A stretch of DNA of 64,000 nucleotides. It comes from an uncultured Gemmatimonadota bacterium (lineage in GTDB: Bacteria; JAAXHH01). Below the pieces are notes generated by a model, which saw nothing but the letters and a program-made list of their open reading frames with translations, did no database searches and was not told the DNA's origin. Numbering within the stretch: the stretch's first letter is position 1; every line of letters begins with the position of its first letter. Shown here piece after piece: positions 21,092 to 43,144 of this stretch. Location of the stretch: contig OX638340.1 of NCBI GenBank assembly GCA_951812955.1, positions 2,272,001-2,336,000 on the forward strand, given 5' to 3'. The position numbers and the translations under genes are program-made.

Positions 21092-21266
21092 TATGGACTA
21101 CTTGATCCAGATGCAGCCTACAAATGGTTTTTCAACATCTGATTATGGACTACTTGACGCGACTGATTATGGACTACTTGTGATTATGTACCTTCTGTTC
21201 CAGACGCAGATTAAAATGGGTCCTGGACACGGTTATTCATACCTTCTGGACACGGTTATTCATACC
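21092..21266. repeat. Intergenic short direct repeats. TATGGACTACTTG occurs three times, and a 22-bp unit occurs twice; the second copy contains the stop codon of FtsX-1.
   Basis: The three-copy motif lies at about 21092, 21145 and 21169. The 22-bp copies ggacacggttattcatacct lie at 21221-21243 and 21245-21266. The minus-strand TAA of FtsX-1 is at 21256-21258. Confidence 0.85.
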
Positions 21267-23718
21267 TCAATGCATGCACAGGGTCGGACAGCGTGGTCTT
21301 CAACGTATGATACATCACAGTCAGCAGAGCGATCATCGTGACGAAAGCCCCTACGAGACCGAAGATGCCAAGATTGACCACGGCGTGATACGCAAACTCC
21401 TGAATCCACGTCATCATCATCGTGTACGCAATTGGCCAGGCTATGGCGTTTGCGATGAGTGACAAAATGACCACCTCGCGGCATTGCAGGGTTAACAGAC
21501 TCAGAAAAGTCGCTCCCAGTGCCTTTCGTATCCCCACTTCCCTGATGCGTTTTCTTGTCGTGTATGAAACAAGGCCGGTCAGGCCCAGGCAAGCGATAAG
21601 AACCGCTATCAGCGAAAAACTGCCGAGTATCGTAATCAGTCTGTTCTCTTCGTTATAGAACTGTGCGGTGTCTTCATCCAGGAAGTAGTAGGCAAATGCG
21701 AAGTCCGGATTGATGTCCCTCCATGTCTCCTCGATGAATGCCAGGGTTTCCTCGTAGTTCTCCGAACCGAGTTTAATGGACACATTCCAGAATTCATCTG
21801 ATGCGAGCATGGCGAGCGGTTCGATTTCCGACCTTAAGCTATTGTAATGAAAGTCATTTACTACCCCGATTACCGTTCTGAAGGATTCAGCGGCCTCCCC
21901 GGACGCTGACATGCCGCGGGGCGCAATCCACCTTATCCTTTCTCCCACGGCTCCTTCAGCAGAATCCCAGCCGGCTTTCGCGGCCGCGCGCTCGTTGAGA
22001 ATGATTGAACGCCTGTCTTCCGCCGCCAGGGTACTCGAGAAAAAACGTCCTGCTTTCATGGTCATGCCAAGCGTACGGAGGTAGTCGGCGTCGACCCAAA
22101 AGGTCCTTACCTGGATTTGCCCTCCGTCGTCTGCGGTTATCGGCCGTATGGTCGTTTGTAGCGGCGGTCTTCCCGGGGGCATGTCGGACCCGGAAACACT
22201 GAGTACGCTATGGTGTTCAAGCAGTCTTTCTTTCAGGGCCGAGAATGTATTTACGACAGGAGTGAATGTGAGCGGAATGACGACTATCCGTTGGTTGTCA
22301 TAGCCCAGGTCCTTGTCCCGGATGTAATCTATTTGCTGATACACGATGCAGGTAGCGATTATCAGAACAGTCGATATGGTGAATTGAAACACGACCAGCG
22401 TTTGACGCAGCGACGCCTTTTTTATCCCTCTGCTAATCCCGCTTTTAAGTACGTCAATCGGTTTGTAAGATGAAAGCAGGAGGGCGGGGTAAATGCCGGA
22501 GACAAGTCCAACCATCAGCGAAGTGCCGAGTAACGCCGGTATCAACTCGGAGATATCATAACTGATCTGGTCTGCTGACGCTGTCATCATACTGCTGAAC
22601 ACGGGAAGCAGGAACTCGATCATTCCCCAAGCGATAGGCAAGGCGATGATGGCGATAAACACAGACTCTCCGATATGCTGTGCCATCAGTTGGGCTCGTT
22701 GCGCTCCCAGCGTTTTACGCAGTCCTATTTCACCTGCACGGCCGCTCGAGTACGCGGTAGCGAGATTGATGAAGTTCACACAGGCAATCATCAGTATCAG
22801 TACCGCTACGGCGCCGTAGAGGAAAACAGTTGAAATACTGCCGTTTGGTTCCAACTCACCCATGCGACTAGAGTAAAGATGAATGGATGTCAGGGGTTGC
22901 AGAGTGAGGTCAAAAGTAATTTGCTCACTTTCAAACCGGGGATTCACGTGCCTGGAAACAAACTCGGGAAACTTGGTGGTCAATTCACCGGGGATGGAAG
23001 CCGGTGTGAGCAACAAGTAAACATGGCTGCGGTTCCAAAGATCCCAGGTGTACCGCTCATCCGGCCTAAAACTGACCGATGATTCACGTTGATGTGCGAG
23101 AAAATCATAATTCATGTGCGAGTTTGGTGGCAGGTCTCGCATTACCCCCACGATACGATAGTCCCAGGTATCTTCGGCGCGAATCGTTTTACCTATGGGA
23201 TCGGCATCCTTGAAGTACTTCAGCGCCATGGATTCGGACAAAACGACCGTAAAGGCGTCTTTCAGCGCGGTTTCGGGGTTTCCTTGAACGAATTCGACCG
23301 AAAAAACATCGAAAAACGTGGAGTCCGTGTGATAGAACCCCTTTTCATAGAATCGATTTTCGCCGTGGGCTATCATGTAGGAAGAACCCGGTTTCAGAAC
23401 GGTCACCGACGCTTGAATTTCCGGGAACTCCTCTTTCAGGACGCTGACCAGGGGGGTCAAGGCAGCAGCGGTTTCCGTGGTGCTGTTCGGACTGTGTATG
23501 TCCATCGCCACGCGGTATATTCTGTCTGAATTCACATTGAACCGATCGAAACTCAGTTCGAACCGCATGTAGAGCATAATCATCACGAAACATGTTACGC
23601 CAATTGTAAGACCCACTACATTGATGGATACATAAGCCTTATTGTTCCACAGGTGGCGAACAGTAGTCCTTAAAATGTTACTGATCAGCGACGCAGGAAG
23701 AAACCCGGTAGCGGCCAT
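21256..23718 (-). CDS. ABC-transporter permease with two FtsX domains and MacB-like periplasmic domains. No ATPase partner is present (FtsX-1).
   Basis: About 820 aa from MAATGFLPASLISNILRTTVRHLWNNKAYVSINVVGLTIGVTCFVMI.... It has the N-terminal transmembrane helix, large periplasmic domains and two 4-TM FtsX blocks. It is a paralog of the genes at 32238 and 37170. Confidence 0.85.
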   Translation of the reverse strand: MAATGFLPASLISNILRTTVRHLWNNKAYVSINVVGLTIGVTCFVMIMLYMRFELSFDRFNVNSDRIYRVAMDIHSPNSTTETAAALTPLVSVLKEEFPEIQASVTVLKPGSSYMIAHGENRFYEKGFYHTDSTFFDVFSVEFVQGNPETALKDAFTVVLSESMALKYFKDADPIGKTIRAEDTWDYRIVGVMRDLPPNSHMNYDFLAHQRESSVSFRPDERYTWDLWNRSHVYLLLTPASIPGELTTKFPEFVSRHVNPRFESEQITFDLTLQPLTSIHLYSSRMGELEPNGSISTVFLYGAVAVLILMIACVNFINLATAYSSGRAGEIGLRKTLGAQRAQLMAQHIGESVFIAIIALPIAWGMIEFLLPVFSSMMTASADQISYDISELIPALLGTSLMVGLVSGIYPALLLSSYKPIDVLKSGISRGIKKASLRQTLVVFQFTISTVLIIATCIVYQQIDYIRDKDLGYDNQRIVVIPLTFTPVVNTFSALKERLLEHHSVLSVSGSDMPPGRPPLQTTIRPITADDGGQIQVRTFWVDADYLRTLGMTMKAGRFFSSTLAAEDRRSIILNERAAAKAGWDSAEGAVGERIRWIAPRGMSASGEAAESFRTVIGVVNDFHYNSLRSEIEPLAMLASDEFWNVSIKLGSENYEETLAFIEETWRDINPDFAFAYYFLDEDTAQFYNEENRLITILGSFSLIAVLIACLGLTGLVSYTTRKRIREVGIRKALGATFLSLLTLQCREVVILSLIANAIAWPIAYTMMMTWIQEFAYHAVVNLGIFGLVGAFVTMIALLTVMYHTLKTTLSDPVHALRYE

Positions 23719-23852
23719 GGCGGATCTCCAGCAGCTTAAAACGGGATTTCGTACAGGAAGCAGAAGCCACCCCAACCTTATGCGGACAATATAGTGTTCC
23801 CCTCGACTTTTCGGTACGACATTACAGGCGTAACGCGGCAACCAGGAGCACC

Positions 23853-25697: not shown

Positions 25698-25702
25698 AGC
25701 AG

Positions 25703-25845
25703 CGCATGGATTCATTGCCACATAGGCGCATTGAGGCGTCGCATCAGCACATTGCCGCAAAGATGCATTGGAGCGCCGCGTAAACTCATTGTCGAACAGG
25801 CGCAATGAAGCGGCGCATAGATTTACTGCCGCAAAAGCGTATCGA
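25703..25845. repeat. Degenerate direct repeats of about 30 bp (GCGCAT..ATTGCCGCAAAG motif). They start 6 nt after the glycoside-hydrolase stop and fill the leader of the aminopeptidase.
   Basis: The unit aagcagcgcatggattcattgccacatagg at 25703 recurs as aagcggcgcatagatttactgccgcaaaag at 25808. Intermediate degenerate copies lie between them. Confidence 0.6.
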
Positions 25846-25871
25846 AAACCAACCACGGAGACTTAACACCC

Positions 25872-26987: not shown

Positions 26988-27029
26988 AACAGGCGCGCTA
27001 CGACGACGCGGAGAAGATCGAAGAAAGTC

Positions 27030-29555
27030 CTACTGTTCCAACAGCATGAAGCTGGTCGTCCTGGTTGCGCGCTGCCCGGAATGCCGGTCCTCAAGCGTCA
27101 CCGCGAGCACATACACACCGGCCGTCAGGTCCGTGGTATCGATCGCCGTGTACTCGGCTTCCTCGGACGTATCGCCCTCGCCCTCATACGACAGAACGAC
27201 GGTCTGCAGGTCGCCGGACCGATCAACCGGACGGCCGCCCGTATCCGGCATGCCCTCGGGTTTGATCTCGTAGTAGGTCTGGTAGGAGGTCCGTCCCGCT
27301 TCGTCTCTGTCCAGGTTATAGATCTCGTAATACACGTACACCAACTGGCCCCGCCCATATGCGCGCAACGGATGCGGCACGATGTTCAGCCCTTTCCTGA
27401 CGAACGATCCGGTCTGGTCGGTCGGCGTTATACCGGTAGACATCTTGAGGCCGCTGATCATCAGATCGCGTCCCTGGTAATCGGGGATGGAAACCGGTTT
27501 CCTGTAGACGCCGATGCGCTGGGAGGTTTCATCCTGCATCTCCACGGCCGCCGTGAACTGTCCCGAAGGCACCAGGACATCGACGGCCAGCGTGTAGGCC
27601 GATACCCGGGCCTGTTCGGAGCTTATCATCCGCTTCGGCCGTTCGATGGGACCGAAGCGGAACTTCTGATTAAGCACCGGCTTGTTTACCGTATCGCGCA
27701 GCGTGGCCTGGTTTCTCAGGAAAGTTTCGTTTCCAAGGCCGTCGGTGACGTCTCCGAACTGCCAGACTGGAAGGCTGTAGACCAGTTCCATTACCGTTTT
27801 CTTGCCGTTCCCCCGGAAAGTGGTGATGTCGAAGGCATAGTCCAGGCCGTCGCCTCCGAAATCGTGCTCGTAGTCTTCCGGGCTACGCTCGATCAGCTGT
27901 TCGGCGATCCGCTGGGGATGATGCATTTCCTCCTTCTGAATTTCGTTGAATGCAGCGTTGTTATCGGGTTCCGTGGAGATCATCAGCGTGCGCAGGGGGT
28001 AGTCGAACCGGCCCCCTCCCATCTGGTCGACGAAGAACAATTCCATGTCGTGCGCCGCGTATACCCAGCTCTCCGACCTGTAAGACGGCCCCATCGCCCG
28101 TCTTTGAACGATCCTGGTTTCGTAGTTGACCTCGGATTGATCATTTAATGAAGACTCTTCTGTGGCTACGTTGTCCGCGGTGAGGTTGTTCACGGTCAGA
28201 AGTGATGCAGCGCCGAAGCCCGCGCGATTCTTCGTGTCCTGTTCCAGCTGGACGGACACCTGTCCCCGGTCCACTTTCAAGCGGTAACCGAACTGCCAGT
28301 TCTTTTCGCGAATGGCGTCCACGGCCGGATTGCCGGTGGGCATGTAGATATCTCTTGGGTCCTCGTATGAGCGGAAGAGAAACCGTCGGCGGTCGTCGGG
28401 CTCGCCATAGCGGACGTATATCTCCCCACGACGGTCGTAGGGGAACCGAGCCGAGGAAAAGTGTATACGTGCATACATCACCCGCTTGTAATGTTCGACC
28501 AGGCGTTCGTTCTCGACCGTGGCTGGATTCGGGTCCCGGGCATTCCAGAAGTCCTGCCACAACCTGTCGCGGGCCGGTCCTTTCGCGGCCTCCCAGGCCG
28601 CCAGCTCGTCGGGAGAAGCCACGTGGGCCAGGTCCCAGTAAATCTCCTGTTCCTCGGACTCAAGCCCCTTGATGTAGGTCTCCAGCGACCGCTGCAGCAG
28701 GTCGTACTGTTTCTTCGAACTCATGGACAGCGCTTCGAACTGCGTCAGCATGGTCCGGATCAGGTCGGGCGTGATACCCTCCATCTCCTCCGCCATCTTC
28801 CGGAGCTGTTCTGCGCCCCGCTCGTAATATTCGAACCGGTGACAGATGCCGGCGAATTTCCGAAGCGTCTCGGGATGGTCCGGATTGACCTGGTACTGTC
28901 TCAGGTAATTAGTCAGCGCCTTGATGTAGTCGTCGTAACGGTCCCTGACGCGCTTCCCGTGGTCCGCCAGCTTCAGTTCCTCGTAACAACGGCCGAGTTG
29001 ATAGAATGCGTCCGGATGCTCGGGATCCAATTCTACAGTCCGCTCAAAGTACGCCCGGCCATCCTGATGACTGCCGATCAGCCAGGCGGTATCGACCTGG
29101 TCCATGTACGTCAGGCCCATGATGTACTGGATCTGGGCGTTTTCGGGATCCAGTCTCATGGCGGTGCGCAACGCCTTCCGGGCATCGAGGCGCCGGTGCG
29201 GCATGCGATTGTATACGAGCCCCAGGCCCATATGGCCAGGTGCCCATTTCCTGTCTCTCCTGACCGCGTGCTTGAAGGCCTTGAGCGCTTCTGCGTCCCT
29301 GTTCAGTGCGAACAGGGCCATGCCGAGCCAGTAGTGGCCGGAAGCACTGTTCTTATTATCCAGTACCGCCTGCTGCAACGGAGGCAGCGCTTCACGGTAC
29401 ATGCCCAGTTCGTAGTAGCGTTTGCCTTCTTCAAGCGATGACTGGCTTGCCAGCCCTGCATCCGGCGGCAAGGCGGACTGGGCCTGCGAGCGACCGAATG
29501 GGACCCACACGGTCAGAATCAGTGCGGCGGTTGAAATGAAACGGAGTGTAGTCAT
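27030..29555 (-). CDS. Secreted TPR-repeat protein with a conserved C-terminal domain resembling the GWxTD family (TPR-1).
   Basis: The start is at the internal MTTLRFISTAALILTVWVPFGRSQAQ signal. It has about 6 TPR units (YWLGMALFAL..., YIMGLTYM...). The C-terminal domain contains FWNARDPNPATVENERLVEHYKRVMYARIHF...PYDRRGEIYVRYGEPDD. This matches the remembered GWxTD-domain pattern with the GWxTD residues substituted. Confidence 0.6.
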   Translation of the reverse strand: MTTLRFISTAALILTVWVPFGRSQAQSALPPDAGLASQSSLEEGKRYYELGMYREALPPLQQAVLDNKNSASGHYWLGMALFALNRDAEALKAFKHAVRRDRKWAPGHMGLGLVYNRMPHRRLDARKALRTAMRLDPENAQIQYIMGLTYMDQVDTAWLIGSHQDGRAYFERTVELDPEHPDAFYQLGRCYEELKLADHGKRVRDRYDDYIKALTNYLRQYQVNPDHPETLRKFAGICHRFEYYERGAEQLRKMAEEMEGITPDLIRTMLTQFEALSMSSKKQYDLLQRSLETYIKGLESEEQEIYWDLAHVASPDELAAWEAAKGPARDRLWQDFWNARDPNPATVENERLVEHYKRVMYARIHFSSARFPYDRRGEIYVRYGEPDDRRRFLFRSYEDPRDIYMPTGNPAVDAIREKNWQFGYRLKVDRGQVSVQLEQDTKNRAGFGAASLLTVNNLTADNVATEESSLNDQSEVNYETRIVQRRAMGPSYRSESWVYAAHDMELFFVDQMGGGRFDYPLRTLMISTEPDNNAAFNEIQKEEMHHPQRIAEQLIERSPEDYEHDFGGDGLDYAFDITTFRGNGKKTVMELVYSLPVWQFGDVTDGLGNETFLRNQATLRDTVNKPVLNQKFRFGPIERPKRMISSEQARVSAYTLAVDVLVPSGQFTAAVEMQDETSQRIGVYRKPVSIPDYQGRDLMISGLKMSTGITPTDQTGSFVRKGLNIVPHPLRAYGRGQLVYVYYEIYNLDRDEAGRTSYQTYYEIKPEGMPDTGGRPVDRSGDLQTVVLSYEGEGDTSEEAEYTAIDTTDLTAGVYVLAVTLEDRHSGQRATRTTSFMLLEQ

Positions 29556-29575
29556 GATCTCTATGTGATAAACCG

Positions 29576-29630
29576 GGTACGGTATGGCCTGCAAGGTACG
29601 GTGTAGCCCGCATGGTACGATATGGCCTGC
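29576..29630. repeat. Three tandem 19-bp direct repeats (GGTACGGTATGGCCTGC-like) about 20-75 nt upstream of the TPR-1 start.
   Basis: Copies lie at 29576-29592, 29595-29611 and 29614-29630, with 2-3 mismatches between them. Confidence 0.8.
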
Positions 29631-29704
29631 GAACAAACTGAACCGTCGATCAAAGCGGCTGTTTCCCCACACGTTCGGCGACGCGGGGAAGACCGAAGAA
29701 AGTC

Positions 29705-32125: not shown

Positions 32126-32630
32126 GCCAAACCAACTTGTAGGGGGAAATGACGAAAAGAGATGGAACCTGCTTTAACAGATCCAGGTAATGCCTGCAAC
32201 CTACCCTTATTCGCGGCCACAGTCAAACAAAAGCGGCCTAATCTCGCCGCAGGGTGTCCGCCGGGTTGAGCATGGCGCTTCGGAAGGTATGCACGCTCAC
32301 GGTGAGCAGGGCGGTGGCCAGGACAACCAGTCCCGCCGCGACGAAAGGCGCAGCACCGATCTCCGTCCGGTAGGCGAAGTCCGCCAGCCACTCGTTCATG
32401 AGCCACCAGGCGGCCGGCCAGGCGAGGACGTTGCCGATCACCACGAGGACGACGAACTGCCTCGACAGCAGGCCGACTATATCTGAGACCGCGGCGCCCA
32501 TCACCTTGCGGATGCCGACTTCCCGCGTGCGGCGCGCGATGTCCAGCGACACGAGTCCATATACACCCAGGCAGGCGATCAGCAGGGCGAATACCGCGGA
32601 ATAGGTGAAAATGCGCGCAAGGTTGGCTTC
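31970..32630. repeat. Segment about 97% identical to 36903..37565. It covers the TPR-2 5-prime end, the intergenic region and the FtsX 3-prime end.
   Basis: Direct alignment of the two stretches shows only scattered mismatches across 660 bp. Divergence begins upstream of about 32630 and 37565. Confidence 0.85.
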
Positions 32631-34610
32631 ACCCTCGTAGAATCGGGCGATGTCGTCATCAAGGAAGGAATACTCGAAAAGCGATTCCGGGGCGATCTCC
32701 ATCCATGCCGCTCTCAACAGATCCAACGTGGCAGGCAGGTCCCGCCCGCTGACGCGTACCAGGAGGAAATTAACACCACCCTGGGTTTCCTCCCCGAAGG
32801 AAGCGGGATTCATCGTCAGGATTACCGGCTCTATTTCTTGATGCATCGACTGGTAGTGGTAGTCCTCCAACACGCCGATGACCGTATATCCGTGGGGCAG
32901 GGTCCGTCCGAGGGGGTCGTCCCATTCCATCACCCTGGCCGCGGCTTGGTTGATTATACATGACCCGGATTCGTCGTTGCCGAACTCCCGGGAAAAATCT
33001 CGTCCTGAGACCAGGTTCAGCTCTAGCGCCTTCACGTAATCGTAATCCACCGTGAACATATATGCTTCAAGCTTGTTCCCGTCCTTATCTGTATAGGCGG
33101 ACTGACCCAGGCCCCGACCGAAGGTGTTGGAAGCTCCCGTCACCAGGATTACGTTCTCATACGAGTTTATCCTGGATTTATAGACGTCCGCGGAGTTGGA
33201 ATTGGGCCCCATGTGGATGACGATGACGTTTTCCTTGTTGTATCCCAGATCTGTGTTCATGACGAAGTCCAACTGTCGGGTCATGACGAGTATGGAAACA
33301 ACGAGTAAGGCAGACAGGCCGAACTGGACGACCATCAGGCCGCGGATAACCAGGTTTGGGCTCCCGATCCGAACCTGATGTCTGAATACGGCAACGGGAT
33401 TGAAACGGGAGAGGATCAGGGCGGGATAGCTCCCGGACGCCAGGGCAACCAGGCCAGTCAACACTAGTAGCGCGGCGATCGTAGAGCCGTTGGAGAGATA
33501 ATCTAGGACGTATGAGCTTCCCGCCAGCGTGTTGAATACAGGAAGAAACAGGTGGGCCAGGATAACGCCTAAGATGAGGGCGAAGCAACTCAACACCGCG
33601 GTCTCACCCAGGAACTGTTTCATGATCTGGGTTTTCTGCGCACCGAACACCTTCCGCAGTCCAACCTCCCTGGCGCGCGAAGACGATCGGCAGAAGGCCA
33701 GGTTCATGAAATTCACGCAGGCGATGAAAAGAACGAAAAGCGCCGTGCAAATCAGTATGTAAGACCTGTTGGGATCGCTCGTGGTACCCTGGCCAAACCT
33801 CACACCCTGAGCAAGATACATGTCCGTTAAAGGCTGCAATTCCAGGTATGGCGATCCCATCTGTGAAAAATGAGTCTCGACAAAACCCGGCAACTGGTTT
33901 TCAAGCATGTCTGCCATTTCCGGATCCGACAGCTCGACGTAGGTTGAGGAGACACTGTAGTTCCAATTGCCGATCGCCTGATTCGTCCAGTTGTCGATAG
34001 CAAACATTTTGTCGAAGGGGATCAGGAAATCGAACCGTATGCTGGAATTAACCGGAGTGTTCTCTGCTACCCCGGCCACCAAAAACGGTTCACCTCGTAT
34101 CGTGAGTTGCCTGCCCAGGGGGCTTCCCGTCCCAAAATACTTCTCGGCGGCGGACTGGCTGATCACCACCGAGTTCAGTTCGTTCAGGACCGTCCCGGGA
34201 TCACCTTCGATCAATGGGAAGGAGAACACGCTGAATATCGATGGATCGCTATACAGAACGTGTTCTTCCCGGAACACATCATTACCAACACGGACTTCCG
34301 CCCCTCCGGTGGTTCGTATTCGCACGGTCTGTTCGACGCCGGGATACTGTTCCTTAAAGGCAGCGGCAAGTGGAAGAGGGGTAATCCCACTGGTATATAA
34401 GTTATCCTCGAAACCTGATCCACCGACGTTGACCCGGTAGATCCGGTCCGCCTTCTCGTGAAAGGCGTCGTAGGTCCACTCCTGGCGCACGAAGAGAAAT
34501 ACGAGGAGGCTGCAGGCGATGCCGGTGGACAGGCCCAGCGTGTTGATGAAGAAGTAGCCCTTGTTGCCGAACAGGTGCCGAAACGCGATGACAAGGTGGT
34601 TTTTCAGCAT
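32238..34610 (-). CDS. ABC-transporter FtsX/MacB-type permease (FtsX-2).
   Basis: 790 aa beginning MLKNHLVIAFRHLFGNKGYFFINTLGLSTGIACSLLVFLFV.... It has two FtsX blocks. Its last roughly 130 aa are identical to FtsX-3. Confidence 0.85.
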   Translation of the reverse strand: MLKNHLVIAFRHLFGNKGYFFINTLGLSTGIACSLLVFLFVRQEWTYDAFHEKADRIYRVNVGGSGFEDNLYTSGITPLPLAAAFKEQYPGVEQTVRIRTTGGAEVRVGNDVFREEHVLYSDPSIFSVFSFPLIEGDPGTVLNELNSVVISQSAAEKYFGTGSPLGRQLTIRGEPFLVAGVAENTPVNSSIRFDFLIPFDKMFAIDNWTNQAIGNWNYSVSSTYVELSDPEMADMLENQLPGFVETHFSQMGSPYLELQPLTDMYLAQGVRFGQGTTSDPNRSYILICTALFVLFIACVNFMNLAFCRSSSRAREVGLRKVFGAQKTQIMKQFLGETAVLSCFALILGVILAHLFLPVFNTLAGSSYVLDYLSNGSTIAALLVLTGLVALASGSYPALILSRFNPVAVFRHQVRIGSPNLVIRGLMVVQFGLSALLVVSILVMTRQLDFVMNTDLGYNKENVIVIHMGPNSNSADVYKSRINSYENVILVTGASNTFGRGLGQSAYTDKDGNKLEAYMFTVDYDYVKALELNLVSGRDFSREFGNDESGSCIINQAAARVMEWDDPLGRTLPHGYTVIGVLEDYHYQSMHQEIEPVILTMNPASFGEETQGGVNFLLVRVSGRDLPATLDLLRAAWMEIAPESLFEYSFLDDDIARFYEGEANLARIFTYSAVFALLIACLGVYGLVSLDIARRTREVGIRKVMGAAVSDIVGLLSRQFVVLVVIGNVLAWPAAWWLMNEWLADFAYRTEIGAAPFVAAGLVVLATALLTVSVHTFRSAMLNPADTLRRD

Positions 34611-34686
34611 GATCGTTTTGCCTCCTGTCGCTTACGAGCTGTAAGCCGGAAAACGTTCCTGAGGAAACACGATCTTGGAATGGCAA

Positions 34687-34719
34687 AGGGGATCTACGGT
34701 TTCGACCCGTCGATCCCCT
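34687..34719. other. Hairpin with an 8-bp stem (AGGGGATC / GATCCCCT) and a 17-nt loop, between Big_2-1 and FtsX-2. It is repeated at 39617-39649 with a 9-bp stem.
   Basis: Sequence aggggatctacggtttcgacccgtcgatcccct. There is no strong U-tract, so it could be a weak terminator for the Big_2 gene or a regulatory element for the FtsX gene. Confidence 0.35.
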
Positions 34720-34779
34720 GAAAAGTTGCATGTTGGTAACTATTGCGATGCCGGAACTTACGTAGTGCATTCCCGACTG

Positions 34780-36381
34780 TCAGTCAACGACAAACGTGTT
34801 TTCACTACGGCGAAAACTCCTATCATCGCCAAACGAAACATCATAAACCAGTCTATACTCACCGGCGACTTCCGGATCGTATGGGCAAGCGTCGAATTCC
34901 ACCCGTGTGGCCTCGATGTCTTCCCATGTACTGCCCATATCGTCGCTTCGCTGCCATACGGAGTAATGGACCGTCATGGGGATACCTAACGGCTGAGTTG
35001 GGTAGTTGTTTAGTTCAGCACGAAAGAGTGAACTTGCACAGTATTCTATAGTTATAGGAGTATATCCTGGTCCCGTGAATATCAACTTACCGGGCTCGAC
35101 CTTCCAACCTTCCCACGGGACATAGACTATCTCGTCGACTGGCTCGTCGACGCCTTCGCCGCCATCCCCGCCATCCCCGCCTTCACCACCTTCCCCTTCA
35201 GTCGGAACCATGACCGTGATACTCACCATGGCCGACACGTCGCCGGACGCGGCCGTGACTACGGCCATGCCGTTGCCCACCGCTTCTACCAATCCATCCT
35301 CGTCCACGGTGATCACGTTTTCGTCACCGCTCGTCCACGTGACGGCCGGTTCGGCAATGGCATTGTCGTTCCCGTCGCTGACGGAAACCATGAGTTGCAG
35401 GGTCTGTTCGATCTCGGTCAGCGTGGTGGCATCGGGTGCGACCTCGATGCTGATGCCGGCCGGAACCTGGGCGACGGTGATCGACGCAGTCCCCATAGCG
35501 TCTCCGGCCTGTGCCGTGATCTCCGCCATGCCGTTGTCCACCGCGGTCACAAGCCCGTTCTCGTCCACGGTGGCCACGGCGTCATCGGCGCTTGACCAGG
35601 TCACCATCACGTCCTCCATCGCGTTTTCGTGCTGGTCCAGCACGACGGCCGCGAGTTCCACGGTGTCGCCGATCGCTTCCAGCGTGTGCGCAGCGGGCTC
35701 GATCGTCAGGCTCGTCGGCACGGATACGGATACCGTGATGGACGCACTGGCGGACAGGCTGCCGGATGTGGCCGTGATCTCAGCCATCCCGTTACTCACC
35801 GCCGTTACAAGGCCCGCCCCGCTCACGGTCGCCACGGCGTCGTCGCCGCTCGACCAGGTGATGGACTGGCCGGACATGATGTTGTTCCGCTGATCCCGCA
35901 CCGTAGCCGACAACTGTACCGTTTCCCCGATCGCCTTCAGCGTATGGGACGTCGGTGCGACCGTGATCCGGGTCGGCACCGGCTCGGCCACCGTGATGTT
36001 CGCAGTGCCCGTCGCGTTGCCGGACTGCGCCCTTATTTGCGCGGCGCCGTTGGCCACGGCCGTCACCAGGCCATTTCCGCTGACAGTCGCCACCGCGGTA
36101 TTGCTGCTCGACCAAGTCACCGCCTGGCCGGTCATCGGATTGTTGTTCTGGTCCCTCACCATGGCCATCAGTTGCACGGTCGCGCCAATCGTCGCCAGCG
36201 TGTGCGAAGACGGCGTGACAGAAATGCTCGTCGCAACGGGCGCAGGCGGTGGAGCAGGCGGGGTCGGTGTGGACGGCTCGGGACTCGTCGGGCTGCTGTC
36301 CCCGCCACCGCATCCCGCCAGAAAAACCAGGTACAAGGATGCCGTGATCTTGGCGAACACGCGACTGTATGGACCAAACAC
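34780..36381 (-). CDS. Surface lipoprotein with four Big_2 (bacterial Ig-like group 2) domains, a Gly/Glu/Asp linker and an unclassified roughly 125-aa Cys-containing C-terminal domain (Big2-1).
   Basis: GTG start with an AAGGAG ribosome-binding site. It begins MFGPYSRVFAKITASLYLVFLAGCGGGDSS (lipobox), followed by a Pro/Thr linker. Four repeats carry the Big_2 signature (..TVQL.A.V.DQ.NN.M.GQ..TWSS....VATV...GLVTAV.NG.A.I.A..). The C-terminal domain reads VPWEG...CASSL...VHYSVWQRSDDMGSTWEDIE...DACPY.PEVAGEYRLV. Confidence 0.8.
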   Translation of the reverse strand: MFGPYSRVFAKITASLYLVFLAGCGGGDSSPTSPEPSTPTPPAPPPAPVATSISVTPSSHTLATIGATVQLMAMVRDQNNNPMTGQAVTWSSSNTAVATVSGNGLVTAVANGAAQIRAQSGNATGTANITVAEPVPTRITVAPTSHTLKAIGETVQLSATVRDQRNNIMSGQSITWSSGDDAVATVSGAGLVTAVSNGMAEITATSGSLSASASITVSVSVPTSLTIEPAAHTLEAIGDTVELAAVVLDQHENAMEDVMVTWSSADDAVATVDENGLVTAVDNGMAEITAQAGDAMGTASITVAQVPAGISIEVAPDATTLTEIEQTLQLMVSVSDGNDNAIAEPAVTWTSGDENVITVDEDGLVEAVGNGMAVVTAASGDVSAMVSITVMVPTEGEGGEGGDGGDGGEGVDEPVDEIVYVPWEGWKVEPGKLIFTGPGYTPITIEYCASSLFRAELNNYPTQPLGIPMTVHYSVWQRSDDMGSTWEDIEATRVEFDACPYDPEVAGEYRLVYDVSFGDDRSFRRSENTFVVD

Positions 36382-36463
36382 TGCTGTCTCCTTTCGGCTA
36401 ATTACTGAAAAGCGGTTCGTTGTAATCTACCGTTCTTGATCTCGATGAACAGATTATCTGACT

Positions 36464-37057
36464 TCATGCACGCAGGCCCTTCATACTCTCCCGGGCCGCT
36501 TCGAGGGTCCGGTCGATGTCTTCTTCGGTATGGGCCAGGGACACAAACCCCGTTTCAAGGCGCGAAGGCGCCAGGTAGACGCCCCGGTCCAGCATATTCC
36601 AGAAGTATCGCCCGTACGTATCCGCGTCTGACGTGGAAGCTGCATCGAAATTGTTGACGGTCTGATCTGTGAAGAAGGTACACATCATGGAGCCCACACG
36701 GGTCAGGCAGGCCGGGACGCCGGCCGCTTCCGCCGCGGCGCGAAGGCCGTCGCCGAGGCGGGCGGCCAGGGATTCCAGCCGGTCGTAGACCCCGGGTTCC
36801 TGAAGCTGCCGCACCGTTTCATATCCAGCGGTCATGGCAAGCGGATTGCCGGACAGCGTGCCGGCCTGGTAAACCTCACCGGCGGGCGCCACGGTTTCCA
36901 TGAACTTTTCCTGGTCGAATAGCGCACGTCCCGCTTCCAGGGGAGTCCGCTGGCCGGTTTCAGCGACTGTATCATCTGCGGTGGATTGGGCCTGGAGGCG
37001 ACCCTGCATGAGAAAAACGAGCAGGACCGCTACCAGAAGTACAGGGTATCTGGTCAT
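36464..37057 (-). pseudogene. Chimeric in-frame ORF. The TPR-2-type promoter, ribosome-binding site and signal peptide (50 codons) are fused to the C-terminal 147 codons of hemL. It is the junction product of the tandem segmental duplication.
   Basis: The N-terminus MTRYPVLLVAVLLVFLMQGRLQAQSTADDTVAETGQRTPLEAGRALFDQEKF equals the start of the 29705..32125 gene. The remainder, METVAPAGEVYQAGTLSGNPLAMTAGYETV...MKGLRA, equals the end of the 41855..43144 hemL gene. The breakpoint is at about 36903. Confidence 0.7.
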
Positions 37058-37169
37058 GGCAAACCAACTCGTAGGGGGAAATGACGGAAAGAAATGGAAC
37101 CTGCTTTAACATATGCAGGTAATGCCTGCAACCTACCCTTATTCGCGGCCTCAGTCAAACAAATGCGGC

Positions 37170-39541
37170 CTACTCGCTCCGCAGGGTGTCCGCCGGGTTG
37201 AGCATAGCGCTTCGGAAAGTATGCACGCTCACGGTGAGCAGGGCGGTGGCCAGGACAACTAGTCCCGCCGCGACGAAAGGCGCAGCACCGATCTCCGTCC
37301 GGTAGGCGAAGTCCGCCAGCCACTCGTTCATGAGCCACCAGGCGGCCGGCCAGGCCAGGACGTTGCCGATCACCACGAGGACGACGAACTGCCTCGACAG
37401 CAGGCCGACTATATCTGAGACCGCGGCGCCCATCACCTTGCGGATGCCGACTTCCCGCGTGCGGCGCGCGATGTCCAGCGACACGAGTCCATATACGCCG
37501 AGGCAGGCGATCAGCAGGGCGAATACCGCGGAATAGGTGAAAATCAGCGCCAGGTTGTTCTCATCCTGGTAGAACCGTTCTATATCGTCTTCCATGAAGA
37601 AATACTCGTAGGGCGTCTCAGGCGCTGTCCCCTTCCACGCGTCCTCGAGCAGGGAAAGCGTGGTTGGCAGATCCCTGCCGCTGACCCGGACCAGGAGGAA
37701 GCCGTAACTGACCGAAGTGTTACCCATGGATGTGGGATTGAGGGAGAGTATAATCGGATCGATCTCCTGGTGCAGCGACTGGAAATGGAAGTCCTTGACT
37801 ACGCCGATTACCGTATACCCATGGGGCAGTTTGCGCCCGATCGGATCTTCCCATTCCAGCTTCTTTGCCGCGGCCTCGTTGATGATGCACGATTGGAACT
37901 CGTCGTTTACGAATTCGCTGGAAAAATCACGGCCACGGACGAGGTTCAGTTCAAGCGTCTCCAGGTAATCGCGGTCCACGGTCGCCATGAACGCTTCCAG
38001 CTTGTTTCCGTCCGGTCGGTGTAGGCAACCTGGGGCAAGAAATGCCCCTGACCAAAGGTGCTGGAAGTGCCGGAAACCAGGAGTATGTCTTCGTACGGTA
38101 TCACTTTGCTGCGAAAGATCTCCAGGTCGTTTGAATTGAAGGGGGCCTGGATGACTACCACGTTGTGCGGGTTGAACCCCAAATCCCCCGTCCGCACAAA
38201 GTCCAGCTGCCGGGTCATGATGAGAATTGAAATGACGAGCAACGCGGACAACCCGAACTGCACGACCATCAAGCCGCGCACGAAGAGATTCGGCCCTCCG
38301 ATCTGAACCTGTTGCCGGAAGATGGTGACGGGGTTGTAGTGTGAGAGCACCAGGGAAGGATAACTGCCGGAAACCAGGGCGACCAGCACGGTCAAACCCG
38401 TCAGCGCGGCCAGCGTGGATCCGTTCGTCAGGTAGTCCAGCACGAGGGACTTTCCCGCCAGCATATTGAAAACCGGAAGGAACAGGTGGGCCAGGGCCAC
38501 GCTCAGCACCAGGGCGAAGCAGCACAGCGCCGCGGTTTCGCCCAAGTGCTGTCCCATGATCTGGGTTCGGCGCGCGCCGTAAACTTTCCTGACACCGACC
38601 TCTTTCACACGCGAAGACGAACGGCAGACGGCCAGGTTCATGAAGTTGACGCAGGCGATGAATAGTACGAGCAGCGCCGTGCAAATCAGGATGTAGGACC
38701 GGTTGGGATCGCTGGTGGGACCCAGCCCGAATTTGACTTCCTGATCCAGGTAGATATCGGTGATGGGTTGCAGGATCAGATAGGGCGACGAGTAGGCCGG
38801 GAAATGGGTTTCGACGAATTCCGGCAGTTGACTGAGGAGCGATTCTACTCGATCCGGATCCCCGAGTTCGATGAAAGTGGCCGTGGACGAATAGTTCCAC
38901 TTTCCGATGGCATTCGATATCCAGGGGTTTATTTCCGGCGCCTTGTCAAAGGGTATGAGCAGGTCGAACCGAATACTGGAGTTATCCGGTCCGTTCTCCG
39001 CGACGCCGGTTACGGTCAGCGGAATGCCCTGTACCAGGAGCGTCCTGCCCGTCGGAGACTCCTGGCCGAAGTACTTCGCCGCGGCGGATTTGCTGACGAC
39101 CACTGAATTCGCCTCGCCGAGGGCCGTACCGGGATCGCCTTCGATCATCGTGAAGGAGAACATCTCGAAGAAGGACGGATCGCAGAAAAGGGCGTTCTCC
39201 TTGCGGAACGTATCTTCTCCGATGCGAATATCGGATGGATATTCCGTTATGCGCACGGTCCGGACCACGTCGGGATATTGCTGCTCCAGGGTAGCCGCGA
39301 GCGGGAGGGGAGTTCTCGCGCTTATGAACGGGTTGTCGTCGAAATCCACTCCACCGGCTGCGACCTGGTAGATCCGGTCCGATTTCTCGTGGAAGGCGTC
39401 GTAGGTCCACTCGTGGCGGACGAAGAGAAAGATCAGGAGGCAGCACGCGATACCGGTCGACAGGCCAAAAGTATTGATGAAGAAATAACCCTTGTTGGCG
39501 AACAGGTACCGCAACGCGATGACGAGGTTGTTTTTCACCAT
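37170..39541 (-). pseudogene. FtsX/MacB-type permease paralog (FtsX-3) disrupted by a single-nucleotide deletion near 38012.
   Basis: The N-terminal 531-aa ORF (37946..39541) and the C-terminal ORF (37170..38900) overlap in different frames. Restoring one G in cgggac (expected AYTDRDGNKLEA, as in FtsX-2 AYTDKDGNKLEA) gives a continuous roughly 790-aa protein. This could be a real pseudogene or a homopolymer sequencing error. Confidence 0.7.
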
Positions 39542-39708
39542 GATCGTATTGCCTCCTGTCGCTTACGCATGCAAGCAGGAAAACGCACCTGGGGAAAGAC
39601 GATCCTGCAATGGCAAAGGGGATCTACGGTTTCGACCCGTCGATCCCCTTAAAGGTTGCATGTTGGTAACTATTGCGATTGGGAACTTACGTTGTGCATT
39701 CCTGACTG

Positions 39709-41772
39709 TCAGGGGATGACAAACGTATTCTCACTACGGCGAAAACTCCTATCATCGTCAAGCGAAATATCACCAACCAGTCTATACTCACCGGCGACTT
39801 CCGGATTGTATGGGCAAGCGTCGAATTCCACCCGTGTGTCCTCGATGTCTTCCCATGTACTGCCCATATCGTCGCTTCGCTGCCATACGGAGTAATGGAC
39901 CGTAATGGTGACACCTAACGGAGTTGGGCGGTTGTTTAGTTCTCCACCTAAGAGTGAACTTGCGCAGTTTACTATAGGTATTGTAGCAAGTCCTGGGACC
40001 GTAAAAACCAACCGACCGGGCTCGACCCGCACACCTTCCCACGGGACGTAGGTGACTTCATCCACCGTAATGGTCACCGTGATGCTCACCATGGCCGACA
40101 CGTCGCCGGACGCGGCCGTAACTTCGGTCATGCCGTTGCCCACAGCTTCTACCAACCCATCCTCGTCCACGGTGACCACGTTCTCGTCACCGCTCGTCCA
40201 CGTGACGGCCGGTTCGGCAATGGCATTGTCGTTCCCGTCGCTGACGGAAACCATGAGTTGCAGGGTCTGTTCGATCTCGGTCAGCGTGGTGGCATCGGGT
40301 GCGACCTCGATGCTGATGCCGGCCGGAACCTGGGCGACGGTGATCGACGCAGTCCCCATAGCGCCTCCGGCCTGGGCCGTGATCTCCGCCATGCCGTTGT
40401 CCACCGCGGTGACCACGCCGTTCTCGTCCACGGTGGCCACGGCGTCGTCGCCGCTCGACCAGGTCACCATCACGTCCTCCATCGCGTTTTCGTGCTGGTC
40501 CAGTACGACGGCCGCGAGTTCCACGGTGTCGCCGATCGCTCCCAGCGTGTGCGCGGCTGGCTCGATCGTGATGCTCGTTGCCACGGGCTCGGATATCACC
40601 ATGACCGTGATACTCACCATGGCCGATACGTCGCCGGATGCGGCCGTAACTGCGGCCATGCCGTTCCCCACCGCTTCTACCAAACCATCCTCGTCCACGG
40701 TGGCCACGTTTTCGTCACCGCTCGTCCACGTGACGGCCGGTTCGGCAATGGCATTGTCGTTCCCGTCGCTGACGGAAACCATGAGTTGCAGGGTCTGTTC
40801 GATCTCGGTCAGCGTGGTGGCATCGGGTGCGACCTCGATGCTGATGCCGGCCGGAACCTGGGCGACGGTGATCGACGCAGTCCCCATAGCGTCTCCGGCC
40901 TGTGCCGTGATCTCCGCCATGCCGTTGTCCACCGCGGTCACAAGCCCGTTCTCGTCCACGGTGGCCACGGCGTCATCGGCGCTTGACCAGGTCACCATCA
41001 CGTCCTCCATCGCGTTTTCGTGCTGGTCCAGCACGACGGCCGCGAGTTCCACGGTGTCGCCGATCGCTTCCAGCGTGTGCGCAGCGGGCTCGATCGTCAG
41101 GCTCGTCGGCACGGATACGGATACCGTGATGGACGCACTGGCGGACAGGCTGCCGGATGTGGCCGTGATCTCAGCCATCCCGTTACTCACCGCCGTTACA
41201 AGGCCCGCCCCGCTCACGGTCGCCACGGCGTCGTCGCCGCTCGACCAGGTGATGGACTGGCCGGACATGATGTTGTTCCGCTGATCCCGCACCGTAGCCG
41301 ACAACTGTACCGTTTCCCCGATCGCCTTCAGCGTATGGGACGTCGGTGCGACCGTGATCCGGGTCGGCACCGGCTCGGCCACCGTGATGTTCGCAGTGCC
41401 CGTCGCGTTGCCGGACTGCGCCCTTATTTGCGCGGCGCCGTTGGCCACGGCCGTCACCAGGCCATTTCCGCTGACAGTCGCCACCGCGGTATTGCTGCTC
41501 GACCAAGTCACCGCCTGGCCGGTCATCGGATTGTTGTTCTGGTCCCTCACCATGGCCATCAGTTGCACGGTCGCGCCAATCGTCGCCAGCGTGTGCGAAG
41601 ACGGCGTGACAGAAATGCTCGTCGCAACGGGCGCAGGCGGTGGAGCAGGCGGGGTCGGTGTGGACGGCTCGGGACTCGTCGGGCTGCTGTCCCCGCCACC
41701 GCATCCCGCCAGAAAAACCAGGTACAAGGATGCCGTGATCTTGGCGAACACGCGACTGTATGGACCAAACAC
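39709..41772 (-). CDS. Surface lipoprotein with six Big_2 domains and a diverged copy of the same C-terminal domain (Big2-2).
   Basis: The first roughly 410 aa are identical to Big2-1. Two extra Big_2 domains from an internal tandem duplication (about 40060-40600 versus 40600-41160) follow. The C-terminal domain is about 75% identical to that of Big2-1. Confidence 0.8.
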   Translation of the reverse strand: MFGPYSRVFAKITASLYLVFLAGCGGGDSSPTSPEPSTPTPPAPPPAPVATSISVTPSSHTLATIGATVQLMAMVRDQNNNPMTGQAVTWSSSNTAVATVSGNGLVTAVANGAAQIRAQSGNATGTANITVAEPVPTRITVAPTSHTLKAIGETVQLSATVRDQRNNIMSGQSITWSSGDDAVATVSGAGLVTAVSNGMAEITATSGSLSASASITVSVSVPTSLTIEPAAHTLEAIGDTVELAAVVLDQHENAMEDVMVTWSSADDAVATVDENGLVTAVDNGMAEITAQAGDAMGTASITVAQVPAGISIEVAPDATTLTEIEQTLQLMVSVSDGNDNAIAEPAVTWTSGDENVATVDEDGLVEAVGNGMAAVTAASGDVSAMVSITVMVISEPVATSITIEPAAHTLGAIGDTVELAAVVLDQHENAMEDVMVTWSSGDDAVATVDENGVVTAVDNGMAEITAQAGGAMGTASITVAQVPAGISIEVAPDATTLTEIEQTLQLMVSVSDGNDNAIAEPAVTWTSGDENVVTVDEDGLVEAVGNGMTEVTAASGDVSAMVSITVTITVDEVTYVPWEGVRVEPGRLVFTVPGLATIPIVNCASSLLGGELNNRPTPLGVTITVHYSVWQRSDDMGSTWEDIEDTRVEFDACPYNPEVAGEYRLVGDISLDDDRSFRRSENTFVIP

Positions 41773-41854
41773 TGCTGTCTCCTTTCGGCTAATTACTGAA
41801 AAGCGGTTCGTTGTAATCTACCGTTCTTGATCTCGATGAACAGATTATCTGACT

Positions 41855-43144
41855 TCATGCACGCAGGCCCTTCATACTCTCCCGGGCCGCTTCGAGGGTC
41901 CGGTCGATGTCTTCTTCGGTATGGGCCAGGGACACAAACCCCGTTTCAAGGCGCGAAGGCGCCAGGTAGACGCCCCGGTCCAGCATATTCCAGAAGTATC
42001 GCCCGTACGTATCCGCGTCTGACGTGGAAGCTGCATCGAAATTGTTGACGGTCTGATCTGTGAAGAAGGTACACATCATGGAGCCCACACGGGTCAGGCA
42101 GGCCGGGACGCCGGCCGCTTCCGCCGCGGCGCGAAGGCCGTCGCCGAGGCGGGCGGCCAGGGATTCCAGCCGGTCGTAGACCCCGGGTTCCTGAAGCTGC
42201 CGCACCGTTTCATATCCAGCGGTCATGGCAAGCGGATTGCCGGACAGCGTGCCGGCCTGGTAAACCTCACCGGCGGGCGCCACGGTTTCCATGATTTCCC
42301 TGCGACCGCCATAGGCCCCCACGGGAAGTCCTCCCCCGATGATCTTGCCCAGGCAGGTCATGTCGGCCGAGATGCCGAATCGTTCCTGCGCTCCGCCGAA
42401 TGCGATCCTGAATCCCGTGATGACCTCGTCAAAAATCAGAATGATCCCCCGCTTCTCCGTCTCTTCCCGAATGGTTTCGAGAAAGCCTTCGGCCGGAGGG
42501 ATCATGCCCATGTTGCCGGCGACCGGCTCTACGATCACGCAGGCGACGTCGCCGCCCCGCTCCGCCAGGGTGCGCCGGACGGCCTCGACGTCGTTGTAGG
42601 GTAGATTGATGGTCATCTTCGCCAGGTCCGCAGGCACGCCGGGACTGTCGGGGATGCCGAATGTCGCGGCGCCGGAACCGGCCTGGATGAGAAAGCTGTC
42701 TCCGTGGCCGTGGTATCCCGCCTCGAATTTGACCGCCAGGTCGCGCCCCGTGTATCCGCGGGCGACGCGCAGGGCGCTCATGGTCGCTTCCGTGCCGGAG
42801 TTGACCATGCGTATCAGGTCGATGGACGGGAAGGCGGTCCTGACCAGTTCCGCCAGCCTGATCTCGGCTTCGGTGGGCGTGCCGAAACTCGTACCCCGTT
42901 CACAGGCCTTCTTCAGGGCCTCGACCACGGCGGGATGGCCGTGGCCCAGGATCAGCGGTCCCCAGGATCCCAGGTAATCGATGTACTCGTTGCCGTCCAC
43001 GTCGTAGACCCTGGAACCCGCGCCCCGGTCCATGAAGACGGGGCTTCCTCCAACCCGCCCGAAATTCCGCACGGGGCTGTTCACCCCGCCGGGCATGGAT
43101 CGCTGGGCCTGGTCGAAGAGGGTACTGGATCGGGAACGGTTCAT
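41855..43144 (-). CDS. hemL: Glutamate-1-semialdehyde 2,1-aminomutase.
   Basis: 429 aa. MNRSRSSTLFDQAQRSMPGGVNSPVR...GSWGPLILGH... is an aminotransferase class III protein with the typical HemL N-terminus. Confidence 0.9.
   Translation of the reverse strand: MNRSRSSTLFDQAQRSMPGGVNSPVRNFGRVGGSPVFMDRGAGSRVYDVDGNEYIDYLGSWGPLILGHGHPAVVEALKKACERGTSFGTPTEAEIRLAELVRTAFPSIDLIRMVNSGTEATMSALRVARGYTGRDLAVKFEAGYHGHGDSFLIQAGSGAATFGIPDSPGVPADLAKMTINLPYNDVEAVRRTLAERGGDVACVIVEPVAGNMGMIPPAEGFLETIREETEKRGIILIFDEVITGFRIAFGGAQERFGISADMTCLGKIIGGGLPVGAYGGRREIMETVAPAGEVYQAGTLSGNPLAMTAGYETVRQLQEPGVYDRLESLAARLGDGLRAAAEAAGVPACLTRVGSMMCTFFTDQTVNNFDAASTSDADTYGRYFWNMLDRGVYLAPSRLETGFVSLAHTEEDIDRTLEAARESMKGLRA

Follow-up and report, generated by a model that had tools for sequence, protein, structure and literature searches.

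The stretch of DNA considered here is a window of 64,000 nucleotides (64 kb, the whole of the sequence analysed) from an uncultured Gemmatimonadota bacterium (assembly GCA_951812955.1, contig OX638340.1, positions 2,272,001 to 2,336,000), and our subject is a block of similar envelope protein genes next to the haem biosynthesis gene hemL: permeases of the MacB/FtsX type, lipoproteins with Big_2 domains (here Big2), and secreted tetratricopeptide repeat (TPR) proteins with a GWxTD domain. A preliminary description had read this block as an accessory array of repeated modules and as a candidate for a novel envelope system. We consider it quite probable that the repetition is mainly the outcome of one very recent tandem duplication of around 5 kb, affecting an envelope locus of three genes that is otherwise single copy, and that older, ordinary paralogs make up the rest. 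This estimate covers the whole of our explanation, in which the recent duplication is combined with a permease gene that is a hot spot of allelic replacement and with an ATPase supplied in trans. Its main value is corrective, as an apparently novel system of multiple modules becomes, for the most part, one recent segmental duplication plus paralogs of widespread, uncharacterised families, namely GWxTD proteins and permeases that resemble the Acidobacterial duplicated orphan permease (ADOP).

Comparison of the window with itself by blastn revealed two co-linear units on the minus strand, with positions 35207-36913 matching 40598-42302 at 99.4% identity and positions 31964-35125 matching 36896-40051 at 77.9%. 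The upstream one, unit B (36896..42302, 5.4 kb, delimited by self-blastn and sliding identity), starts inside hemL and contains the last 448 nt of that gene (41855-42302), the lipoprotein gene Big2_B (39709..41772), the permease gene FtsX_B (37170..39541), a spacer, and the start of a TPR gene (52 codons). The downstream one, unit A (31964..36913, 4.95 kb, delimited by self-blastn), consists of a 3′ fragment of hemL, Big2_A (34780..36381), FtsX_A (32238..34610), and a spacer, and stops 52 codons into the intact TPR gene, TPR806 (29705..32125). All of these genes lie on the minus strand.

Where the two units meet, there is a chimeric open reading frame (ORF) encoding 197 aa (36464..37057, minus strand), in which a signal peptide of the TPR806 type and around 28 further residues continue in frame into the last 145 residues of HemL, as seen in the translation and in a match to Aminotran_3 at residues 45-165. 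A three-way alignment places the join at 36902/36901. The TPR parent reads ...AAGTTC|GCGGAAGC at this point and the hemL parent reads ...GAAATC|ATGGAAACC, while the window reads AAGTTC|ATGGAAACC; the sole letters shared by the parents are TC, at 36902-36903. Judging from these letters, the junction has the anatomy of an illegitimate join mediated by a 2-bp microhomology, which would be unlike the product of a collapsed assembly, and the chimeric ORF appears to be a useless by-product of that join. The succession of a Big2 gene and an FtsX gene, found twice in the block, thus consists of copies made by one duplication event and amounts to one observation rather than two independent ones.

The relatives of this genome have the locus only once. 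They comprise L001-L004, which were fetched through permease homologs, about 18 species-level genomes found by a genome scan among L013-L032, and the closest relative, L091, for a total of around 22 members of a marine Gemmatimonadota-like clade. In these, we found the order hemB-hemL-Big2-FtsX-TPR-M29-GH106-p260 with one hemL-linked permease. The Big2-FtsX-TPR/GWxTD trio is a fixed part of the chromosome of the clade and not an accessory island, so that the idea of an accessory array of repeated modules has to be given up: downstream of hemL, the trio is fixed and single copy, and the repeats of the window come from one duplication.

Other differences in gene content exist within the clade. 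The TPR gene is missing from L024. TPR840 (27030..29552, minus strand), which encodes a second, distant TPR-GWxTD paralog of 840 aa with 45% amino acid identity to TPR806, lies outside the duplication; it also adjoins the TPR806 ortholog in L020, L021, and L091, and an ortholog (79%) stands alone, in an unrelated context, in L011 and L012. The third permease gene, FtsX_C (21256..23718, minus strand, within an ORF spanning 21256-23859; the probable start at 23718 gives 820 aa and the assignment comes from Pfam), encodes a distant paralog with around 32% amino acid identity to both FtsX_A and FtsX_B. Besides the window, it was found in L001, L026, L028, and L091, and it is absent from the other loci of the clade. 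Its G+C content at third codon positions is 0.60, compared with around 0.8 in the neighbouring genes, and the G+C content of the region is 0.518; the low third-position value suggests that FtsX_C was acquired separately and inserted between the GH106-like gene and the gene for a 260-aa protein. TPR840 and FtsX_C are differences in gene content that are separate from the duplication and common to some of the relatives. We also observed a perfect direct repeat (23 nt, two copies, 21223-21267) that overlaps the stop codon of FtsX_C and may be the scar of an insertion.

Identity between the two units is mosaic, and here the preliminary description, which had invoked recombination as the cause, was right, the contrast being even more marked than it had said. 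In a sliding comparison, identity between the units is 100% for about 1.3 kb, which takes in the hemL fragment and Big_2 domains one to four; in the C-terminal part of Big2, identity is 73-98%; it falls to 57-81% at the nucleotide level in the body of the permease gene (66% at the amino acid level over the N-terminal 510 aa or so), rises to 92-99% in the last 300 bp or so of that gene, and is around 90-93% in the spacer and the start of the TPR gene. In the permease body, the synonymous divergence (dS) between A and B is 1.34 and the ratio of nonsynonymous to synonymous divergence (dN/dS) is 0.18, values which imply that both have long evolved as functional genes. FtsX_A and FtsX_B thus appear, from their sequences, to be allele classes of old divergence kept under purifying selection. 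From residue 661 to the end, however, the dS between A and B is 0.10, and the dS between FtsX_A and the L001 permease is 0.66, compared with 0.13 in the body. This combination of a low value between A and B and a raised value between A and L001 means that this segment of A is B-like, as would be expected if conversion between the copies had overwritten the 3′ end of FtsX_A with sequence of the B type.

The two units also differ in their closest counterparts. FtsX_A shares 92% amino acid identity with the permease of L001, and FtsX_B shares at most 79% with any database protein found. FtsX_B carries a 1-nt deletion (GGG to GG at 38012-38013) that splits the gene into two overlapping ORFs (37946-39541 and 37170-38900), with 790 aa once repaired, and its N-terminal fragment of 531 aa is identical to the public protein P0041. 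Big2_A has 81% amino acid identity to the single Big2 of L001, and the form with six Big_2 domains seen in Big2_B is also found in L091. The block had been described as containing three paralogous permeases of about 800 aa; all three are there, but the description needs to be amended in that FtsX_B is split and FtsX_C is only a distant relative of the other two.

How two alleles could come to lie side by side is best understood from the relatives. L001 and L026 share 97-100% nucleotide identity through hemL, Big2, and the spacer that follows, only 62-84% exactly across the permease gene, 59-64% in the spacer downstream, and 100% again in the TPR gene. L091 has the gene content of the window, yet its permease belongs to a further allele class, 53-81% identical to all others. 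A neighbour-joining (NJ) tree of the permeases contains at least four deep classes, whose distribution is discordant with the tree of the flanking genes. The variation is unevenly spread along the protein: the two periplasmic domains have a mean pairwise amino acid identity of 0.63 and 0.71, compared with 0.94 in the second and sixth transmembrane segments (TM2 and TM6). From these comparisons, the permease gene emerges as a hot spot for the replacement of alleles by homologous recombination, with the variation falling mainly in the periplasmic domains. This swapping of very different permease alleles among close relatives is the only thing about the locus that we find unusual. Given such a hot spot, it is understandable that two units with a stretch of 1.3 kb in 100% identity still carry two different permease alleles side by side.

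Two routes to this arrangement can be envisaged. In the first, a fragment of a sister or incoming chromosome carrying the other allele would have been joined by one homologous crossover and one illegitimate join at the microhomology. In the second, a plain tandem duplication would have been followed by allelic replacement in one of the copies. Merodiploid tandem duplications and homology-facilitated illegitimate recombination during DNA uptake are known from Streptococcus pneumoniae and Acinetobacter. The window resembles the products of such events in that a homologous stretch and a microhomology join together yield a tandem repeat whose units can carry different alleles; it differs from those cases in that the mechanism is here deduced from the end product, in an uncultured lineage.

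The remaining part of our explanation concerns the permeases themselves. Searches with Pfam and NCBIfam hidden Markov models confirmed that the block contains, where the preliminary description had placed them, three MacB/FtsX permeases with two MacB_PCD and two FtsX domains each, two TPR-GWxTD proteins, and two Big_2 lipoproteins. The FtsX domain (PF02687) matches FtsX_A and FtsX_C twice each, at 71-80 bits against a cut-off of 25.5, and FtsX_B is homologous throughout; MacB_PCD (PF12704), located between TM1 and TM2, matches two stretches per permease at 113-134 bits against a cut-off of 27. FtsX_A, which is intact, has 790 aa and two periplasmic MacB_PCD domains; like the other two permeases, it has eight transmembrane segments. 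The loop R-x-R-E-V-G-[IL]-R-K that follows TM2 and TM6 is kept in both halves of the permeases. In MacB, the ATPase docks on the coupling helix, which is formed by the loop after TM2. We consider, from what is known of the family, that each permease would be the transmembrane half of a type VII (MacB-like) ATP-binding cassette (ABC) transporter, arranged as a pseudo-dimer in one chain and dependent on a separately encoded ATPase, and that the choice of substrate or partner, in the periplasm or the outer leaflet, would lie with the variable periplasmic domains.

As the preliminary description had stated, there is no cognate ABC ATPase in the window: across the full 64 kb, a Walker A motif and an LSGGQ-type signature never occur together in one ORF. 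Pfam and NCBIfam searches likewise found neither a membrane-fusion protein (MFP) nor an outer-membrane factor for the permeases in the block. An outer-membrane efflux protein (OEP) gene at 379-1647 and the adaptor gene next to it were considered as the missing pump partners and rejected, as the adaptor is CusB-like and has no similarity to the MFP of the arrays described below. The preliminary description had called the permeases ATPase-less, and it is on this point that the homologs of the permeases (30-54% amino acid identity) in Latescibacterota, Bacteroidota, and other Gemmatimonadota are informative. In these phyla, they form arrays of up to eight permease genes headed by one gene for a MacA-like MFP and one for an ABC ATPase (L008, L009, L033-35, L042, L045, L047, L058, L070, L076, and L087), and the ATPase of these arrays has 66-75% identity across phyla. 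Given that one ATPase gene serves many permease genes in the arrays, the lack of an ATPase gene of their own is normal in this permease family and does not point to a new mechanism. By analogy with the arrays, it is likely that the ATPase serving the hemL-linked permeases is supplied in trans. We found no paper describing such MFP-ATPase-permease arrays.

Comparison with better known systems places these permeases more closely. The best solved relative is MacB (5lil, E 4.6e-11), and with MacB of the MacAB-TolC system (PDB 5lil, 5nik, and 5gko), they share the FtsX transmembrane domain, the MacB-type periplasmic core, and the loop, in the form R-x-R-E-[IV]-G-x-[RL]-K, in both halves. MacB itself has a fused N-terminal ATPase and is a homodimer of chains with four transmembrane segments. 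In contrast, the permease of the window fuses two halves of four transmembrane segments into one chain of 790 aa, without an ATPase domain and without an MFP or TolC partner in the block. ADOP (TIGR03434) is the top NCBIfam match over the full length and shares with our permeases a length of around 800 aa, internally duplicated FtsX/MacB_PCD domains, the lack of an adjacent ATPase gene, and the presence of many paralogs. The scores, however, are below half of the cut-off of 622.3 (282.8 and 293.1 bits, with 293 for FtsX_A), and the lineage is Gemmatimonadota-like, not Acidobacteria. To our knowledge, no function has been assigned to ADOP, and in the literature, we found only passing mentions of a “duplicated orphan permease”.

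The array permeases belong to the same family, and most of their genes also lack an ATPase gene of their own; unlike them, the hemL-linked permease is solitary, with Big2 and GWxTD genes as its neighbours, and lies far from any array. LolCDE, whose extraction of lipoproteins the preliminary description had taken as a possible model on account of the adjacent lipoprotein gene, belongs to the same superfamily as the permeases of the window. LolC and LolE are single-domain proteins of around 400 aa that are encoded together with the ATPase LolD. In the block, no protein matched the NCBIfam models of LolC or LolE at E <= 0.01, and there is no ATPase. The coding of many permeases alongside a single conserved pair of ATPase and MFP genes suggests a testable solution to the old problem of why duplicated permeases occur as “orphans”. 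One of the arrays deserves a remark of its own: L042, on a contig of 144 kb, and L022, on a contig of 3.9 kb with a hemL-linked permease, both come from RHO2_bin_5 and seem to belong to different lineages, so this bin may be mixed.

Several points weigh against the explanation that we favour. The duplication and the 1-nt deletion are known from the assembled sequence, and the NJ trees are rough. When the ATPase of the L042 array was used as the query, the top 120 matches (at least 75% identity) all lay off the contig of the window, those with 96-100% identity lay mostly on 5-Mb contigs, and the L042 bin is probably of another lineage. On the order of events and on which unit is native, the evidence pulls both ways, as the Big2 of unit B resembles that of L091 while the FtsX of unit A resembles that of L001. 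Finally, the explanation leaves unaddressed the conserved order of the trio, on one strand and with short gaps (82, 167, and 112 bp), in around 22 genomes whose permeases are 60-92% identical, which may reflect real functional coupling.

That arrangement is also the first argument for the idea that the Big2, FtsX, and TPR-GWxTD proteins form one dedicated envelope machine, in which, for example, the permease would extract or display the lipoprotein, the TPR-GWxTD protein would be a periplasmic adaptor, and the extra copies would add capacity or variants. All three proteins carry export signals, and the trio evolves faster than its housekeeping neighbours, with 67-72% amino acid identity to L002-L004 compared with 86-93%. 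We nevertheless regard such a machine as unlikely. The unrelated hem genes, the M29 peptidase gene, and the GH106-like gene are equally syntenic, which makes adjacency unspecific, and the conservation of the gene neighbourhood, although it holds for the trio in the relatives of the clade, does not extend beyond it, as a GWxTD or Big2 gene adjoins the permease gene at 0 of the 58 loci with permease homologs outside the clade, many of which are instead arrays of the kind described above. The TPR gene can be missing, as in L024, and orthologs of TPR840 can stand alone, as in L011 and L012. Furthermore, the near-identical Big2 and TPR genes of L001 and L026 (97-100% at the nucleotide level) are paired with permeases that are 62-84% identical, so that the presumed partners do not co-vary, and the duplication does not speak for the dedicated permease-lipoprotein pair that the preliminary description had derived from the repeated Big2-FtsX order. 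Lastly, the C-terminal part of Big2 has been swapped for leucine-rich repeats (LRR) in L002 and L003.

This last replacement left a trace in the form of a remnant ORF of 68 aa. Similar remnants of the Big2 C-terminal domain (46-64% amino acid identity) were observed just upstream of the permease gene at 9613-9819 in L002 and at around 9617-9814 in L003, L013, L021, L028, and L029. These remnants in relatives of the LRR type imply that recombination has likewise exchanged the 3′ half of the lipoprotein gene.

The hemL-linked permease could also be a balanced polymorphism with at least four to five deeply diverged allele classes that are shuttled by homologous recombination among uncultured marine bacteria (possibly associated with sponges or corals) whose genomes are otherwise near-identical, the window with its two alleles being a captured heterozygote and Big2 and GWxTD working together with the permease as one envelope unit; taken as a whole, we think this quite unlikely. 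Nonetheless, the swapping of deeply divergent permease alleles by genomes with 97-100% identity elsewhere bears the signature of a frequency-dependent pressure, and it marks the periplasmic domains as the place to seek function. If the polymorphism is balanced, a plausible driver would be the use of these domains as an entry receptor or target by phages, bacteriocins, or antimicrobial peptides of a host, or else specificity for a variable ligand. We found no literature linking sponge Gemmatimonadota with FtsX.

Our preferred explanation, a recent duplication, also has to be compared with an ancient one, in which the locus would have duplicated in situ, ongoing gene conversion would have homogenised the flanks (concerted evolution), and the permease bodies would have diverged. 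In favour of this view, the copies have undergone gene conversion at the 3′ end of the permease gene, and the permease bodies have a dS above 1. We think it very unlikely, however, as it would need independent losses in all of the around 22 relatives, including the closest (L091, L001, and L026), as FtsX_B groups with alleles of other genomes (P0034, P0035, and P0006) rather than as a sister to FtsX_A, and as the non-functional hemL fragment matches hemL at 100% identity along some 450 bp.

Even less probable is a contingency locus for surface variation, as the preliminary description had proposed, in which programmed gene conversion among cassettes would generate antigenic variants. The mosaic identity between copies, the variable number of Big_2 domains, and the several permease allele classes in the population would suit it, but the second copy occurs only in this genome, all sampled relatives being single copy, and the block contains no silent cassette array, no inverted repeats of at least 40 bp, no phase-variable simple repeats, and no recombinase or invertase gene; the tandem repeats that are present are in frame or intergenic and have few copies. 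Moreover, the most variable gene encodes an inner-membrane permease, not a surface protein, and a dN/dS of about 0.2 means purifying selection.

It is just as improbable that the permease alleles of two coexisting strains were stitched into a false tandem repeat during assembly, even though the source is a metagenome-assembled genome, an identical stretch of 1.3 kb is a classic assembler trap, and the closest relative, L091, a short-read assembly, has a single copy: a false join would not yield a novel in-frame TPR'::'hemL junction at a microhomology, the contig of 3.81 Mb has been publicly deposited with its frameshifted gene (P0041), and the sister assemblies of the same series are at chromosome level, which suggests that long reads were used.

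With regard to the TPR proteins, both exceed the cut-off of 28 bits for GWxTD_dom (NCBIfam TIGR04514), TPR840 with 55.0 bits and TPR806 with 49.8 bits, so the preliminary description was correct in assigning them a shared GWxTD-like domain, but not in placing it at the C-terminus. The matching stretch is central (around residues 294-440), after some 260 residues of TPR and before two C-terminal beta-sandwiches, and the presumed position of the eponymous GWxTD motif reads H-P-Y-D-R-R-G. This position between TPR repeats and two beta-sandwiches is what sets the two proteins apart within the GWxTD family. TPR806, a secreted protein of 806 aa, is the conserved third gene product of the locus. In its AlphaFold2 (AF2) model, the mean predicted local distance difference test (pLDDT) score is 72.8; the TPR solenoid (40-300) and the beta-sandwiches (535-806) are confident, and the GWxTD stretch (300-530), with a pLDDT of 45-70, is poorly defined and was assigned no fold. 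Foldseek matches of this model were dominated by the TPR part, and the nearest solved look-alikes of the predicted beta-sandwiches were the Vibrio cholerae biofilm scaffold RbmA and arrestin-like folds. A sequence search of the PDB with the GWxTD part returned nothing, and we found no relevant paper on GWxTD; we know of no function for the GWxTD domain-containing proteins of TIGR04514, under which name the TPR homologs P0145 and P0161 appear in public databases. An imperfect tandem repeat of 19 nt in 2.9 copies (29576-29630) lies in the 5′ leader of TPR840, shortly before its likely start codon (29552).

Both Big2 proteins have a LAGC lipobox, which is followed in Big2_B (687 aa) by six Big_2 domains found with Pfam and a C-terminal Ig-like domain of 120 aa, and in Big2_A (533 aa, likewise analysed with Pfam) by four Big_2 domains, an acidic Gly/Glu/Asp linker, and the C-terminal Ig-like domain. 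The two extra domains of Big2_B correspond to an in-frame internal tandem duplication of 528 bp (40070..40597, minus strand) without a counterpart in Big2_A, 93% identical to 40598-41125. An in-frame repeat of 9 nt in five copies (35151-35196) encodes the Gly/Glu/Asp linker of Big2_A, which Big2_B does not have; slippage there would alter the length of the linker only. The C-terminal domain was rightly described as unclassified in that it has no Pfam match. Among 1.84 billion proteins, 161 cluster representatives contain it, most often at the C-terminal end of a protein with Big_2 domains, with or without LRR, and its weaker matches fall on Ig_3/I-set repeats. Sequence similarity of this kind makes one more Ig-like domain the most likely identity. 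AF2 models made from two input sequences were all-beta with a mean pLDDT of 54, too poor for a fold search. In Big2_A, the domain (34780-35181, minus strand) contains a perfect Asp-box-like S-D-D-M-G-S-T-W and an Ig-type E-x-A-G-E-Y, and up to 16 related modules occur per giant protein (P0369 and P0374). Three tRNA-Gly(CCC) genes of 93 nt predicted by ARAGORN on the plus strand (35335-35427, 40198-40290, and 40726-40818) were discarded, as each is antisense to the repeated Big_2 coding sequence and is almost certainly an artefact of the repeat.

In the window as a whole, with a G+C content of about 60%, the genes on the minus strand follow each other in the order hemA, hemC, hemD/cobA, a zinc-ribbon gene, hemB, hemL, Big2_B, FtsX_B, the chimeric ORF, Big2_A, FtsX_A, TPR806, and TPR840. 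After TPR840 come genes for an M29 aminopeptidase and a GH106-like protein on the plus strand, and then FtsX_C, the gene for the conserved 260-aa protein, and a gene of the beta-lactamase family. hemL, which encodes glutamate-1-semialdehyde 2,1-aminomutase (41855..43144, minus strand; NCBIfam hemL, 620 bits), is the last gene of the haem operon hemA-C-D-x-B-L. A scan of the block for promoters and terminators gave counts at or below the shuffled expectation, and we drew no operon boundaries; Rfam gave no matches, and six proteins of the block had no match among the PADLOC models of anti-phage defence.

A few of the neighbouring genes merit mention. The protein of around 260 aa (20271-21086, minus strand) has no match in Pfam, NCBIfam, or PADLOC, and with 91-96% identity across the clade, it is more conserved than the products of hemL or hemB. 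At the right end of the window, a gene for an outer-membrane protein of the PorV family (63373-64000, plus strand; PF19572, 59.8 bits) is truncated by the window end. The suggestion that it links the block to type IX secretion was not borne out, as it lies 21 kb away and the Big2 and TPR proteins have no match to a sorting domain of the Por_Secre_tail type; as a homolog of PorV, it is a component resembling those of the type IX secretion system that is present in this Gemmatimonadota-like genome and unlinked to the block. At the left edge, the TolC-like OEP gene (379-1647, minus strand) precedes the beginning of a gene for a lipoprotein adaptor (1-362, minus strand), whose N-terminal part has a CGMHP...CPICGM metal-binding motif; the pair looks like a heavy-metal efflux operon of the CusCBA type leaving the window. 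Between hemD and hemB, finally, a gene for a Cys-rich double-zinc-ribbon protein of 205 aa (44155-44772, minus strand) is kept in the haem operon of all the relatives.

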